In this document: positions 33,986 through 41,480 of the stretch, piece after piece
Numbering within the stretch: position 1 is the first letter of the stretch
Layout: each line of letters starts with the position of its first letter
Origin: a virus
Lineage: Duplodnaviria; Heunggongvirae; Uroviricota; Caudoviricetes
Reading direction: 5' to 3' (one strand)
IMG/VR virus record: IMGVR_UViG_2687453364_000004
DNA length: 43,538 nucleotides
Notes under the pieces: model-generated
The model's database searches: none
What the model saw: the letters and a program-made list of their open reading frames with translations, nothing else
What the model was told of the DNA's origin: nothing
Made by a program: the position numbers and the translations under genes

Positions 33986-34911
33986 AGATCCACCCCGTAA
34001 ATCCAGTCTGTGTTTGTCAGGTCGAGTTTTGGTTTGCTAGCTGTCACGCCTGCCTGTTGCTTGTTACGGTTGATTTCGAGTTGGGTCCACTTGTCGCGGA
34101 GTTTGGCCGGACTTAGCACGTTACCGGACCAGAAGTTGTCCTGGCATGCCCAGCGGAACAGCACGCACATGTCGCGGTGGTTACGTCCGTCACGTTCACG
34201 CATCAGGCGGATATCGTTAGCCCACCCTGCAAAATTCGGTTTTCTGGCTGATGGCGCGATGGTCTTCACCATGTCAAACATCCACTCTGCGGCGGTCAGG
34301 TCTTCTGCTGTCCCCCACTTGCTGCCGCTCTGAATTGCAGCATCCGGTTTCACCACAGGAAGATCGTTTTCTGGTTGGTCAGAGGATTCGCCAGAATTCT
34401 CGGACGAAAAAGGTTTTATATTGTCTTTTGTTAGTTTGTCTTTTGTGTTTACCTGATTCGGGTAAACGCCTTTACCTGATTTGGGTAAACTTTTTTTACC
34501 TGATTCAGGTAAATTTACCTCTTTCAGGTAAACTTTATTTTTCTTACCTGATTCGGGTAATGTTGACCATTCACTGACCACATTATTAATGCCGGTATTC
34601 CGCCCGCTCTGAATAAAAATCCCACGCTTTACCAGAACACTTTTTGCAGCAGAACACTTGTGCGGCAATATCCCGGTTAATTCGGAAAGTTGCTCGTTGC
34701 TAACCCAATCCAGTTTTTTATTAAAGCCATATGTTTTGCGCATGACAGCCAGAAAGACCAGAAGCTGGTGCTGTGTTAATCCGGCCAGCATCACAGCTTC
34801 CAGCAACTCATTTGCAATGCGCGTATAACCATCATCGAGATCTGCCACGCGCGGCTCCTTTTGTGCCGCATCCGGCACTGGAAAATTGAATATCTCAGCA
34901 GTGTTTGCCAT
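33982..34911 (-). CDS. O: replication initiator O (chimeric: non-lambda N-terminal DNA-binding domain, lambda-identical C-terminal P-interaction domain)
   Basis: the C-terminal ~125 aa (SSENSGESSDQPENDL...TNTDWIYGVDL) match lambda O; the N-terminal half diverges; start placed at the internal ATG with GGAGG Shine-Dalgarno (MANTAEIFNFP...). Confidence 0.85.
   Translation of the reverse strand: MANTAEIFNFPVPDAAQKEPRVADLDDGYTRIANELLEAVMLAGLTQHQLLVFLAVMRKTYGFNKKLDWVSNEQLSELTGILPHKCSAAKSVLVKRGIFIQSGRNTGINNVVSEWSTLPESGKKNKVYLKEVNLPESGKKSLPKSGKGVYPNQVNTKDKLTKDNIKPFSSENSGESSDQPENDLPVVKPDAAIQSGSKWGTAEDLTAAEWMFDMVKTIAPSARKPNFAGWANDIRLMRERDGRNHRDMCVLFRWACQDNFWSGNVLSPAKLRDKWTQLEINRNKQQAGVTASKPKLDLTNTDWIYGVDL
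34449..34560. repeat. ori: origin iterons (about five copies of a ~18-bp TACCTGATTCGGGTAAAC-like repeat) with flanking AT-rich DNA, inside O
   Basis: TTACCTGATTCGGGTAAAC, TTACCTGATTTGGGTAAAC, TTACCTGATTCAGGTAAAT, TTACCTCTTTCAGGTAAAC and TTACCTGATTCGGGTAA read directly; located mid-O as orilambda is, but the sequence differs from lambda iterons; coordinates +/-2. Confidence 0.75.
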
Positions 34912-34997
34912 AATTCCTCCCGCAATGAGTGTGTTACGATTTGCACCTGAAAGTCGGTTCTGTTCCAGCAGACCGGCTTTCGCCATTTCTGAACCTG

Positions 34998-35537
34998 TCA
35001 TATCGCCCCCAGCATGGTAGTAACCATCGCCATCAATGGACCAGCCAGATCTGGGTCCACACGAAACATCGACACAATACCTTCACTAATTTCCTTCAGT
35101 TTCTGGTGGCGTGGTGCGTTGAGAATGACAGCCTGTTTTGCCTCACTGAGTTCCTTTTCCATTTCAGCCAACCTAGCCATGAAGCTATCCTGCTCAACCA
35201 GGTAACCGCGATATTCCAGCGGTAGTACCGCCAGAATTGCCGGGGTCAGTTCACGCACGTTATTTCGGTATTTTTCAGAATCGAATTTGTTATCGAGGAA
35301 GCGGAACAGCTTCTGGCGTGCACGGCTGACATCATCAGGGAAATCGATGGTGCCGCCGCCCTGCTCCAGATACTCATTCACAATGAGTGTGGCAACGACA
35401 TCCTGATTATCTACAGCCGACCAGGCGCGGACGGCATCACGGATTTTTTCGTGGCCTGGCACCTGTTTTGTTTGAGAACGATTTATCACCGCAGTCGGGC
35501 TAAATCCGCTAGTCTGTTGGTATGTAAGTGGTTGCAT
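34998..35537 (-). CDS. YdaT-family protein (CII functional analogue of Rac/CP-933P-type immunity regions)
   Basis: 179 aa in the cII position between cro and O; segments EYLEQGGG and LTPAILAVLPLEYR resemble E. coli YdaT from memory; AAAGGAG Shine-Dalgarno. Confidence 0.6.
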   Translation of the reverse strand: MQPLTYQQTSGFSPTAVINRSQTKQVPGHEKIRDAVRAWSAVDNQDVVATLIVNEYLEQGGGTIDFPDDVSRARQKLFRFLDNKFDSEKYRNNVRELTPAILAVLPLEYRGYLVEQDSFMARLAEMEKELSEAKQAVILNAPRHQKLKEISEGIVSMFRVDPDLAGPLMAMVTTMLGAI

Positions 35538-35580
35538 AATTGACTCCTTTAGTTTGAATTGACTGTTAAGTTGATTGCTT

Positions 35581-35594
35581 ATTGTTAAAGAGCG
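35581..35594 (-). promoter_or_regulatory. boxA element (nutR-like) just downstream of cro
   Basis: minus strand CGCTCTTTAACAAT matches the boxA consensus (G)CTCTTTAACAA; lies ~13 nt after the cro stop, the position of lambda nutR; no convincing boxB hairpin seen. Confidence 0.6.
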
Positions 35595-35606
35595 TGAAAT
35601 GGAAAT

Positions 35607-35837
35607 TTAAGCTGCGTTCTTTTCGGTGTGTGGAAACAACTTCGGAAGATCCGGGCGAATCTGGTATGCCTTCACTACTCCACCAGTAGCCGTAACAATG
35701 CTGCCGACATGTTCAGGGGATACCTTTGCTTTGTTGTGAAGCCACTTATAGACGGCCTGCTGTGAAACTTCGCAAGCAGCGCCCAGTTTCTTTTGTGAAC
35801 CAACGATATTGATCGCTGTTTTGATAGCTGGGTTCAT
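35607..35837 (-). CDS. Cro/YdaS-like HTH regulator
   Basis: 76 aa, divergent from cI across the operator region; GGAGG Shine-Dalgarno; helix-turn-helix-like segment QKKLGAACEVSQQAVYKWL. Confidence 0.7.
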   Translation of the reverse strand: MNPAIKTAINIVGSQKKLGAACEVSQQAVYKWLHNKAKVSPEHVGSIVTATGGVVKAYQIRPDLPKLFPHTEKNAA

Positions 35838-35941
35838 AACAACCTCCGTGGTTAATTTGAATCAAGATTAAAACTATGGTTGTTTTTAGTCAACAACCAT
35901 TTTCGTTTGATGGAATAAAACCTTGGTTGTACATTTGGACT
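35838..35941. promoter_or_regulatory. oR/pR/pRM divergent promoter-operator region
   Basis: inverted repeat ATGGTTGTT-7 nt-AACAACCAT (~35876-35900) plus further GGTTGT/ACAACC half-sites; candidate pR (minus strand TTGACT-17-TAATCT) and pRM (plus strand TTGATG-17-TACATT ending 7 nt before the cI ATG, implying a leaderless cI mRNA). Confidence 0.55.
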
Positions 35942-36631
35942 ATGAAAACAACACTCTCAGAAAGACTTAAAGAAGCCAGATTAGCGCGAGGCCTTACACA
36001 AAAGGCGCTTGGGGATTTGGTCGGGGTTAGCCAGGCTGCTATTCAGAAAATCGAAACAGGGAAAGCTAATCAAACAACTAAAATCGTGGAGATCGCGAAC
36101 GCTTTGGGTGTGCGCGCAGAATGGTTATCTTCTGGCGTTGGAAATATGTCAGACAGTACAGTGCAACCAATACAATCAACTGTCAGCCATTCCAAATACT
36201 TCAAGATTGACGTTCTTGATATAGAAGTCAGTGCTGGGCCGGGAGTCATCAACCGTGAGTTTGTAGAAGTTCTACGCTCGGTTGAGTACTCGTTTGACGA
36301 TGCTCGTCACATGTTCGATGGTAGGAAGGCGGAAAATATCCGCATCATTAACGTGCGTGGTGACAGCATGTCAGGAACGATCGAACCAGGTGATCTGCTG
36401 TTCGTTGATATCACAGTTAAATCTTTCGACGGTGATGGTATCTATGCGTTTCTGTACGACGACACAGCCCATGTAAAGCGCCTGCAAATGATGAAGGATA
36501 AGCTGCTGGTCATCTCTGATAACAAAAGCTACTCACCGTGGGACCCGATCGAGAAAGACGAGATGAACCGGGTGTTCATCTTCGGTAAGGTTATTGGGAG
36601 CATGCCGCAGACATATAGGAAGCATGGGTAG
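35942..36631 (+). CDS. CI-like repressor (N-terminal HTH, C-terminal LexA/S24-type autocleavage domain)
   Basis: MKTTLSERLKEARLARGLTQKALGDLVGVSQAAIQKIETGK... (HTH); C-terminal RGDSMSGTIEPGDLLFVD...HVKRL resembles the S24 Ser/Lys dyad region; internal ATG chosen. Confidence 0.85.
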   Translation: MKTTLSERLKEARLARGLTQKALGDLVGVSQAAIQKIETGKANQTTKIVEIANALGVRAEWLSSGVGNMSDSTVQPIQSTVSHSKYFKIDVLDIEVSAGPGVINREFVEVLRSVEYSFDDARHMFDGRKAENIRIINVRGDSMSGTIEPGDLLFVDITVKSFDGDGIYAFLYDDTAHVKRLQMMKDKLLVISDNKSYSPWDPIEKDEMNRVFIFGKVIGSMPQTYRKHG

Positions 36632-36752
36632 TACCAATTAAAAATTATCAACTGGGCATTGTGCTCATTCAGTAAAGAACTAATTCCTATCTTTGCTCTA
36701 GGTAGTAATATTAAGCCACCGCAATAATATCTTTACCTAACGGCGTAAGAAT

Positions 36753-36780
36753 CCCGGTCACCGTGCCGGGTTTTCTTTTG
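36753..36780 (+). terminator. rho-independent terminator downstream of cI
   Basis: CCCGG-tcaccgtg-CCGGG followed by TTTTCTTTT; coordinates +/-2. Confidence 0.5.
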
Positions 36781-36896
36781 CCCTCCCCTCATCACACACA
36801 CCGTTAAAAAAACCACCATAACCTCGCTTCAGTTATCGCTATGCGATTCAAGTCACAAAATAAATCCATCCTAAATACAACCAGTTATATCTAAAA

Positions 36897-36950
36897 CAAC
36901 CAATAAAACAACTTTTGTTGTTGACGATAAAACAACTATAGTTTTAAATA
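36897..36950 (+). promoter_or_regulatory. oL/pL candidate: early-left promoter with GTTGTT/AACAAC operator half-sites
   Basis: AACAAC-TTTT-GTTGTT and GTTGTT-8 nt-AACAAC repeats overlapping TTGACG-17 nt-TTAAAT; the same half-site as in oR. Confidence 0.5.
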
Positions 36951-37142
36951 AGTTCATCGCAACAACACAACGATACGGCAACTACCTGATTCACCGTTGC
37001 GATGACCGCTTAGATCCGCAGTTTGAATTTCAGCAGGCTTCGGGGAGTGCGAGGGGTGAAACGGACGCGTGAACGTCGGTGTGACCAGCTGAAATTAACT
37101 CAACATTTCATACCTTAGTCGCTTCAACGAGGCGGCTTAGTT

Positions 37143-37433
37143 ATGACAACCGGCGGCCATCCACCGCCTGAATACGCGCAGAAGTCTCTATATGTTCAGC
37201 AGCCCAGCTTACGGGCAGGAGTTTTTATGGTTCATCAACATTACGGAACGCAGACCGTTAATCGCGGTGCGGTCATGCCAGGAATGCTGGTCAAACACAA
37301 AGATGGTACCTGGACTGCATCAGCTAATTTACGCGGACGGCTTTATCTGCATCGCGGCATCGAGCGCACTTATACCCGTGATTTGCTCGTGGAAGTTTTT
37401 CTCGACGGACGCGGCAACGGCCTGAATCACTAA
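37143..37433 (+). CDS. hypothetical early-left protein (occupies the lambda N-to-kil position)
   Basis: 96-aa ORF with a GAGG ~11 nt upstream; no family recognised; an overlapping 77-aa alternative-frame ORF (37192-37425) cannot be excluded. Confidence 0.3.
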
Positions 37434-37508
37434 TCCCCTTTCCTGTTTACCTAATCAGCCCGGCATTTCGCAGGCGATATTTTCACAGCCATTTTCAGGA
37501 GTTCAGCC

Positions 37509-37805
37509 ATGAACGCTTATTACATTCAGGATCGTCTTGAGGCTCAAAGCTGGGCGCGTCACTACCAGCAGATCGCCCGTGAAGAGAAAGAGGCAGAACT
37601 GGCAGACGACATGGAAAAAGGTCTTCCACAGCACCTGTTTGAATCACTCTGCATCGATCATTTGCAACGCTGCGGGGCCAGCAAAAAAGCCATTACCCGT
37701 GCGTTTGATGACGATGTTGAGTTTCAGGAGCGCATGGCAGAACACATCCGGTACATGGTTGAAACCATTGCTCACCACCATGTTGATATTGATTCAGAGG
37801 TATAA
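37509..37805 (+). CDS. gam: Gam host-nuclease (RecBCD) inhibitor, short form
   Basis: 98 aa, [44 protein letters not shown]... matches the C-terminal 98 aa of lambda Gam; the upstream extension found in lambda is out of frame/stopped here. Confidence 0.9.
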
Positions 37806-37810
37806 AACGG

Positions 37811-38596
37811 ATGAGTACAGCACTCGCAACGCTGGCTGGGAAGCTGGCTGAACGTGTCGGCATGGATTCTGTCGACCCACAGGAACTGATCACCACTCTT
37901 CGTCAGACGGCATTTAAAGGTGATGCCAGCGATGCGCAGTTCATCGCATTGCTGATCGTCGCCAACCAGTACGGCCTTAATCCGTGGACGAAAGAAATTT
38001 ACGCCTTCCCTGATAAGCAGAACGGCATCGTTCCGGTGGTGGGCGTTGATGGCTGGTCCCGCATCATCAATGAAAACCAGCAGTTTGATGGCATGGACTT
38101 TGAGCAGGACAATGAATCATGTACGTGCCGGATTTACCGCAAAGACCGCAATCATCCGATCTGCGTTACCGAATGGATGGATGAATGCCGCCGCGAACCA
38201 TTCAAAACTCGCGAAGGCAGAGAAATCACGGGGCCGTGGCAGTCGCATCCCAAACGGATGTTACGGCATAAAGCCATGATTCAGTGTGCCCGTCTGGCCT
38301 TCGGATTTGCTGGTATCTATGACAAGGATGAAGCCGAGCGCATTGTCGAAAATACTGCATACACTGCGGAACGTCAGCCGGAACGCGACATCACTCCGGT
38401 TAACGATGAAACCATGCAGGAGATTAACACTCTGCTGATTGCCCTGGACAAAACATGGGATGACGACTTATTGCCGCTCTGTTCCCAGATATTTCGCCGC
38501 GACATTCGCGCATCGTCAGAACTGACACAGGCCGAAGCAGTGAAAGCTCTTGGATTCCTGAAACAGAAAGCCACTGAGCAGAAGGTGGCAGCATGA
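37811..38596 (+). CDS. bet: Bet (Red-beta) single-strand annealing protein
   Basis: 261 aa, [59 protein letters not shown]... near-identical to lambda Bet. Confidence 0.95.
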
Positions 38597-39273
38597 CACC
38601 GGACATTATCCTGCAGCGTACCGGGATCGACGTGAGAGCTGTCGAACAGGGGGATGATGCATGGCACAAATTACGGCTCGGCGTCATCACCGCTTCAGAA
38701 GTTCACAACGTGATAGCAAAGCCCCGCTCAGGAAAGAAGTGGCCTGACATGAAAATGTCCTACTTCCACACCCTGCTGGCTGAGGTTTGCACCGGTGTGG
38801 CTCCGGAAGTTAATGCTAAGGCGCTGGCGTGGGGAAAACAGTACGAGAACGACGCCAGAACCCTGTTTGAATTCACTTCCGGCGTGAATGTTACTGAATC
38901 CCCGATCATCTATCGCGACGAAAGTATGCGCACCGCCTGCTCTCCCGATGGTTTATGCAGTGACGGCAATGGCCTTGAGCTGAAATGCCCGTTTACCTCC
39001 CGGGATTTCATGAAGTTCCGGCTCGGTGGTTTCGAGGCCATAAAGTCGGCTTACATGGCCCAGGTGCAGTACAGCATGTGGGTGACACGAAAAGATGCCT
39101 GGTACTTTGCCAACTATGACCCACGAATGAAGCGTGAAGGCCTGCATTATGTCGTGGTTGAGCGGGATGAAAAGTACATGGCGAGTTTTGACGAGATGGT
39201 GCCGGAGTTCATCGAAAAAATGGACGAAGCACTGGCTGAAATTGGTTTTGTATTTGGAGAGCAATGGCGATGA
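38593..39273 (+). CDS. exo: lambda exonuclease (Red-alpha)
   Basis: 226 aa, [50 protein letters not shown]... near-identical to lambda Exo. Confidence 0.95.
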
Positions 39274-39908: not shown

Positions 39909-39930
39909 ACATGAAAAGCAAAATTATCAG

Positions 39931-39954
39931 GGAGCTACAGGCTCCTTTTTTATT
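39931..39954 (+). terminator. rho-independent terminator in the early-left operon, just upstream of the IS
   Basis: GGAGC-tacag-GCTCC followed by TTTTTTATT; coordinates +/-2. Confidence 0.5.
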
Positions 39955-40043
39955 GTTCGCATTCACCCTCAAGCGTATTAACCAACAGTTCAGGGATTAA
40001 TGAAAGATGGCAGTGAAGTGGTCAACAAAAACTGGCCACCGAG

Positions 40044-41191
<1,148 letters not shown>

Positions 41192-41480
41192 TATGGCACC
41201 TGTGTTGTTCTGAGGTGAGCATATCACCTCTGTTCAGGTGGCCAAATTCAGTAAACCACTTCACAGACATCATTGATTCAGCATCAGAAATAGAAGAATT
41301 ACAGCGCAACACAGCAATAAAAATGCGCCGCCTGAACTACCTGGCTGTATCTGCCACTCATTGTTGTGAGTGTGGCGATCCGATAGATGAACGAAGACGC
41401 CTGGCCGTTCAGGGTTGTCGGACTTGCGCCAGTTGCCAGCAAGATCTGGAGCTTATCCGCAAACAAAGGGGGATTAAGTG

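Follow-up and report, generated by a model that had tools for sequence, protein, structure and literature searches.

Comparative analysis of the early-left leader of a lambda-like prophage that has no N gene identifies a conserved, structured, non-coding RNA of about 96 nt, here called W. Because W lies exactly in the slot that related phages use for a put RNA or a boxA/nut element, it is probably a new kind of antitermination signal; its position and structure make it a moderately probable candidate for a new family of signals acting in cis, and for this N-less prophage an RNA-based mechanism is the best-supported reading. A preliminary description of the region had proposed an RNA-based (put-like) or otherwise N-independent mechanism of antitermination, and of this proposal the RNA-based part stands, whereas a likeness to put in sequence or model score was not found.

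Organisation of the early-left region

The window (the whole stretch of DNA analysed, 43,538 nt; IMG/VR record IMGVR_UViG_2687453364_000004) is a lambda-like prophage in which cI, a terminator, OL/pL, a transcribed leader and kil-gam-bet-exo follow one another on the + strand, while a YdaS-type Cro, a YdaT-type CII, O and P (Pfam and ORF list) are encoded on the opposite strand to the leader (-), and a Q-like gene (PHROGs) is located at 25151-25840. The closest deposited relative is the complete phage genome PhiR34_1, for which E. coli MG1655 is listed as host; it is 99.2% identical to the window over 36632-37508. The CI-like repressor gene (35942-36631, +; Peptidase_S24 and HTH domains in Pfam) is followed, 5' of pL, by an intrinsic terminator that closes its transcript (36753-36780, +; CCCGGTCACCGTGCCGGG then TTTTCTTTTG, a hairpin with a T-run) and that is also kept in PhiR34_1. 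The OL operators and the putative pL occupy 36893-36956 (+): AACAAC/GTTGTT half-sites lie at 36895, 36907, 36917 and 36931, with a palindrome, AACAACTTTTGTTGTT, at 36907, and have counterparts at OR. The repressor, terminator and operator/promoter with such half-sites are as first described.

The putative pL consists of TTGACG (36921-36926), a 17-nt spacer and TTAAAT (36944-36949), and the pL region shares a 19-nt match (I24) with the -10 region of pR. Transcription would start at about 36956, as judged by eye and from the onset of homology with phage 4A7, which has a different immunity region and operators and whose homology to the window starts at TCGCAAC, at about 36957. From the cI stop to the kil start there are 595 nt, but this distance includes the terminator and the promoter. 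The transcribed part of the leader extends for about 186 nt up to the first ATG (37143) and reaches the start codon of kil after about 270 nt.

Between cI and pL, the interval that holds rexAB in lambda (here 36632-36750) is empty in the window and in PhiR34_1; it is occupied by GevT/GevA in PhiR47_2 and by a 353-aa protein and an ASCH-domain protein in 4A7. A literature search on GevT/GevA returned nothing relevant.

Downstream of kil, gam (37509-37805, +; Pfam Gam, E 4e-63, in agreement with the annotations of relatives) is followed by bet (37811-38596, +) and exo (38593-39273, +). An intrinsic terminator within the early-left operon (39929-39957, +; AGGGAGCTACAGGCTCCTT then TTTTATTGTT) is a possible target of antitermination; PhiR34_1 has the same terminator and a second one 3' of exo. 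Further on, two overlapping minus-strand ORFs of 112 and 272 aa (40044-41227) interrupt the early-left operon, with the integrase end on one side and an orf61-like gene plus its terminator on the other. Judged from the ORF pair, this is a probable insertion sequence, and since it breaks the operon this copy of the prophage may be defective.

The absence of an N gene was borne out. In the window and PhiR34_1, the best tblastn matches to lambda N, phi80 'N', HK022 Nun, and P22 and phi21 N (the last two as approximate sequences) were at noise level, with E values of 0.05-4, and none fell in the leader; Pfam and PHROGs returned no N-like domain for the ORFs of the interval, and PhiR34_1, PhiR47_2 and 4A7 carry no N annotation.

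W is a conserved and structured RNA

The first part of the putative transcript is a C/A-rich segment of about 45 nt (36957-37000, +; C/G ratio 1.9) that lies outside the conserved element; it varies among relatives, with a different sequence in its place in one sub-group of E. coli and in the divergent types B and C. W itself (37001-37096, +), delimited with a covariance model (R2), BLAST and covariation, comprises hairpin I (37007-37051, +; loop AAUUUCAG), the CG-rich hairpin II (37055-37086, +) and a 3' segment, GCUGAAAUU (37088-37096, +), that is complementary to the loop of hairpin I and its 3' flank. Of 5426 complete E. coli genomes, 2033, about a third, contain a copy of the leader with at least 90% identity, which carries no annotation there; 16 deposited phages have the leader as well. 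Model R2 was built from 23 E. coli variants with hairpin I left out of the search model, and it matches divergent W copies at 64-78 bits in Trabulsiella guamensis, Enterobacter intestinihominis and about 17 viral contigs. Type-C W is 82% identical to E. coli W over 95 nt only, with flanks that are unrelated by BLAST.

RNAalifold on 21 homologues returns two adjacent hairpins. In this fold 20 of 20 pairs form in every sequence, with four double compensatory changes and two one-sided compatible ones, drawn from only three to four lineages; slid controls reach 30-42% pairing and zero or one compensatory pair. Because hairpin I was absent from the search model, its support is not biased by the alignment. 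Most polymorphisms within E. coli (37022, 37032, 37040, 37045 and 37061) fall in loops or bulges or keep the pairing (G.U); a common variant, 37056 G>A, disrupts a basal pair of hairpin II. When the 3' tail is omitted, the minimum-energy structure of the E. coli sequence is the two-hairpin fold.

Two near-isoenergetic folds compete in W. The preliminary description had called the leader potentially structured and given a pairing as an example. Complementarity does exist between GAATTTCAGC (37025-37034) and GCTGAAATT (37088-37096), and the fold of the 81-nt segment is more stable than that of shuffled sequences (z -2.36, with 3 of 200 shuffles as good), but the whole 276-nt leader shows no folding signal against shuffles (z -0.11), and the stem, kept in all types, varies only by a wobble and mismatches, with no compensatory change. 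The comparative data favour the two-hairpin fold with AAUUUCAG as a loop, and the GAATTTCAGC/GCTGAAATT stem may be a pseudoknot or an alternative conformer. A minimum-energy three-way junction with its hairpin 1 at 37038-37054 was rejected, being broken by common variants and not kept in types B and C.

Rfam 15 gave no match at gathering level in the window, and at E of 10 or less over 35300-37600 it gave only sub-threshold chance matches. W is annotated in none of the records examined, and full-text literature searches by sequence and topic returned nothing on it. A metagenome scan with GACCGCTTAGAVCCGC gave mostly chance matches, at least two of the 120 matches listed being true W; one locus with a 17-mer match (L115) was discarded as chance.

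W takes the position of put and boxA elements

HK639, in which putL is annotated, is homologous on both sides of that element to three loci that carry W (L270, L233 and L222), with 85% identity over 1.1 kb in the case of L270; the common flanks, ...GCCAGCGGCGAAGTGGAG and TTTACCAGCAGCTCTTTGCGAGGGGCTGACGG, enclose either put (87 nt, HK639) or W (103 nt, L270, L233 and L222). A second background is provided by the viral contigs L142 and L143, in which put occupies the site of W in the window, about 55 nt 5' of the conserved ATGACAACCGGCGG start, and whose homology to the window restarts at TCAAC..TTCATACC..AGTCGCTTCA.CGAGGCGGCTTAGTTATG. As read from these alignments, W takes the place of putL precisely in two independent genetic backgrounds. 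Among 79 loci with the conserved 5' leader (phi80/HK639-like), the slot is filled by a boxA/phi80-type element in 37, by put in 22 and by W in 19, and a canonical intrinsic terminator (ACCCGCTCCGGCGGGTTTTTT or GCCGCCTAACCAGCGGCTTTTTT) follows in the operon in 28/37, 15/21 and 9/10 cases, respectively.

No gene is co-inherited with W: the first gene in L270 is that of HK639, and the window has none before kil. W is found behind many different immunity regions and operator sets, including the pL of phi80. In types B and C, a stretch of 0.6-1.9 kb that includes several genes and terminators separates it from kil, which lies downstream; in window-type phages the strong terminator seen 3' of W elsewhere is absent between W and kil, and the need for antitermination rests on weaker, more distal terminators. 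That the slot is common to antitermination signals suggests a function for W and falls short of proving it.

The 'N' gene of phi80 (L007, 2186-2482; also many IMG/VR loci) occupies a hypervariable one-gene slot, bounded by a conserved ...AAAGCATTTCTCCCGCATCAGCGGGTAACGACAGAGGGTAAGG.ATG upstream and a terminator downstream, in which relatives carry dozens of unrelated small genes; this hypervariability casts doubt on whether the phi80 gene is truly an antiterminator. HK639-like phages also have, within their early-left leader and just 5' of the variable slot, an odd ARAGORN prediction: a tRNA-Ile(gat)-like gene whose anticodon sits at an unusual position (L008, 1893-1962; L270, 5550-5619; L195, 6974-7053).

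The downstream module and kil

Downstream of W, a conserved junction, TTCATACC, and a hairpin (37117-37139), which together span 37106-37139 (+), come just before the ATG of a short upstream ORF. Positions 37106-37170 have homologous counterparts in HK639 (the 'terminator' region) and in phi80 (the part past tL1A), and the hairpin is formed by at least seven different compensating stems among 65 sequence variants (fold z -2.94). The stretch 37143-37226 (+) holds the conserved start of this ORF, ATGACAACCGGCGGCCATCCACC (MTTGGHPPP..., polyproline), with a hairpin of GGCGG and CCGCC arms at 37152-37168, and in the window it reads in frame into kil. In phi80 and HK639, a separate short ORF begins at this start codon and has the same first eight codons. 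This start motif, with 194 occurrences in the collected loci, served as an anchor. The order CAUACC, hairpin, AGUUAUG, ORF is also seen in L007 (~2505-2560) and L008 (~2490-2550), and in phi80/HK639-like phages the module sits past tL1-type terminators. Being common to put-, boxA- and W-type phages, the module is separate from W. The GAG(G) on the 3' side of its hairpin could be the Shine-Dalgarno sequence of the ORF, and the module may be a translation-coupled attenuator, or may control either translation or Rho-dependent termination, ahead of kil.

The next gene is kil (37227-37433, +), which encodes a KilR-family FtsZ inhibitor of 68 aa and has a GGAG Shine-Dalgarno sequence 7 nt upstream. 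Its product matches phrog_294 (PHROGs, E about 1e-38 to 1e-37) and, from the ATG at 37227, positions 1-70 of the 73 in NCBIfam NF008465 (E 1.8e-17, under the NCBI equivalog cut-off of 92 bits), and Kil is annotated as such in 4A7 and other phages. The 96-aa ORF first described as unknown therefore resolves into Kil (residues 29-96, true start 37227) and the start of a separate ORF (the first 28 codons), and the statement that the leader replaces N through kil was mistaken, since kil is present. Annotations of this gene differ among relatives: 4A7 has Kil as 68 aa, PhiR34_1 has an overlapping wrong-frame ORF of 77 aa labelled hypothetical, and PhiR47_2, since its frame is opened by a TAG/CAG polymorphism at 37116, has a Kil annotation of 129 aa that extends across W.

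The right operon

Twelve nucleotides past the cro stop, in the classical nutR position, lies an rrn-type boxA, CGCTCTTTAACAA (35582-35594, -), that matches the rrn consensus. It is the sole match with zero mismatches in the window and the sole boxA at three or fewer mismatches in an early-operon leader, the left leader having none within three. No convincing boxB-type hairpin was found next to it. The boxA after cro is present in relatives with the same immunity region and was not found in the 4A7 locus. Model R2 and a repeat search detected neither a second W nor an inverted copy in the right operon or after pR, each genome (window and PhiR34_1) having one W.

Between P and the nin region, 28769-33034 (-) encodes a 1421-aa protein with three near-identical tandem repeats, whose N-terminus looks invasin/intimin-like. 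Beyond this gene come a strong bidirectional terminator (28737-28757) and an oppositely oriented esterase gene (27689-28732). In the right operon this strong terminator (28757-28737) sits between P and Q, and W cannot account for its being crossed; the cargo of 1421-aa gene, terminator and esterase gene breaks the transcription path from pR to Q.

Proposed function of W and alternative explanations

We propose that transcription from pL would begin at about 36956 with the variable C/A-rich stretch of some 45 nt, after which the transcript would fold W as two adjacent irregular hairpins with a 3' segment able to pair with the first loop. W would then modify, in cis, the very RNA polymerase that had just transcribed it, either directly, as a put RNA does, or through host factors, and the modified transcription from pL would read through downstream terminators into kil-gam-bet-exo and further; candidate targets would be the terminator at 39929-39957 and, in PhiR34_1, also the one after exo. 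Both the antitermination activity of W and its independence from phage proteins are what we infer. A more far-reaching version, which we offer as a tentative possibility, is that W, without sharing an evolutionary origin with put, forms a second class of RNA able by itself, in cis, to make E. coli RNA polymerase resistant to terminators; as such it would be swappable with put and boxA/nut cassettes and reside in prophages of about one third of complete E. coli genomes.

Given that phi80-like phages have a boxA/nutL-type element in the same slot, W might instead be a nut-like recruitment site for a protein antiterminator, be it an unrecognised phage protein or host Nus-type factors; the perfect boxA behind cro means that Nus factors are probably used. 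We think this unlikely, as W contains no boxA at up to three mismatches, no gene travels with it, the apical loop of hairpin II is not conserved in sequence, and the searches described above found no N/Nun homologue. It is also conceivable that no antitermination is needed and that W, the downstream hairpin and the upstream ORF form a 5'-UTR device that controls expression of the toxic Kil; it could act on mRNA stability or on translation, or by a Rho-dependent attenuation that is lifted when the upstream ORF is translated. In the window kil comes directly after these elements, with no strong terminator between W and kil; the hairpin ahead of the upstream-ORF ATG is strongly conserved, an annotated sRNA precedes kilR in K-12 Rac, and lowered NusG reportedly de-represses kilR, which would count for such a device. 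However, W is separated from kil by 0.6-1.9 kb, several genes and terminators in types B and C, the hairpin and upstream ORF also occur in put-type and boxA-type phages and hence form a separate module, and the precise exchange of W and put is left unexplained, all of which makes a leader devoted to Kil quite unlikely.

Membership of the leader in the put family, as a divergent representative, is very improbable. W does share with put its position, similar size and two adjacent hairpins, and there is a superficial likeness between E. coli hairpin II (GAAACGGACGCG..CGUCGG) and put stem I (GAACGGCGCG..GCGUCGG), but this likeness is gone in type-C W, and the invariant put core, GGCGGGYUCAGG..CGGCAAU, is missing from W. 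A put covariance model (R1) built from six putL sequences (HK022, HK639, CobraSix, S9-5, phiEt88 and UPF_BP1) recovers HK022 putR, which is outside the model, at 35.9 bits, yet even with filters off it does not match W: the best score over 33000-38000 is 7.8 bits, inside gene O, and the match closest to the leader (37142-37228, 3' of W) scores 3.3 bits. The covariance comparison with put RNAs that had been suggested thus came out negative for the leader, and model R1 found nothing in the window, PhiR34_1 or phi80.

We give next to no credence to the idea that the Arg-rich reading frame of the leader codes for a mini-N or a remnant of N, whose arginine-rich peptide would bind a boxB-like hairpin. 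The frame of about 31 codons in the preliminary description does exist (37023-37118, +; TTG start), its ...KRTRERR... is similar to the arginine-rich motifs of N, and a GTG at 37056 (ATG in some variants) lies 8 nt past GGGGAG. Against this, the frame itself has no Shine-Dalgarno sequence, Pfam, PHROGs and tblastn are without a match, and the frame is not conserved: types B and C read GUG AAG CGG ACG UGA, a stop after four codons, and its end varies among E. coli variants, in which the codon is TAG or CAG or a duplication of 5 nt causes a frameshift. Because of these stops and this variable end we judge that the frame is not a gene, and for the same reasons we rejected coding by it or by a long N-terminal extension of Kil. 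The frame is a by-product of the CG-rich hairpin, the Arg codons being the two arms of hairpin II.

To our knowledge, very few examples of processive antitermination by RNA only exist, chiefly put. If W does act as we propose, a second, unrelated RNA doing the job of put would reveal the essential features of the interaction with RNA polymerase, and would explain delayed-early gene expression in the very common N-less lambda-like prophages and phages (Bievrevirus, PhiR phages). The N-less lambdoids have so far merely been assumed to be 'put-like' (e.g. PMC12315714); W is a concrete candidate, which model R2 allows to be annotated, and bears on how E. coli lysogens control the toxic kil and the Red recombination genes.

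Comparison with known systems

The Rac prophage of K-12 has the same Cro and CII types as the window (YdaS_toxin and YdaT_toxin in Pfam) and a homologous Kil, but no W (best score 10.6 bits). An sRNA, KilS, is annotated there just 5' of kilR (L508, 4406-4503); its sequence is unrelated to W or the leader, and Rac was accordingly dismissed as a source of annotation for W.

The boxA antitermination of rrn operons and CRISPR leaders, which depends on Nus factors only (PMC7665894), resembles the proposed action of W in using a cis signal without a protein gene to protect long transcripts, and the boxA after cro in the window fits the rrn consensus; W differs in holding no boxA. The lambda N/nut system likewise employs an early-operon leader, and the right side of the window has its perfect boxA after cro, but N, a boxA in the left leader and a boxB-type hairpin beside the right boxA are all lacking in the window.

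In phi80 (M11919, JX871397), whose early-left region comprises nutL (boxA/core), 'N', tL1A and tL1B, a boxA, a 400-nt leader, the 98-aa 'N' and the tL1A hairpin stand where the window has W. Beyond this point the two phages agree: the window from 37106 onward is homologous to the region just past tL1A, including the hairpin and the ORF start, and kil lies downstream in both. W of types B and C is preceded by the 5' leader of phi80 and in some cases also by its pL.

A close parallel is with the put RNAs of HK022, HK639 and HK75, cis-acting antiterminators whose binding site on RNA polymerase is the beta' zinc-binding domain (PMC9378689). W differs from them in lacking similarity in sequence or to the covariance model, in having an additional 3' segment with complementarity to the hairpin I loop, and in standing alone, whereas HK022 has putR after pR. 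Like put, W belongs to a lambdoid without N and comes just after pL, about 50 nt past the putative start; it consists of two adjacent irregular stem-loops of about 70-80 nt, has no linked phage protein gene and is followed by strong terminators, and it occupies the same slot between identical flanks.
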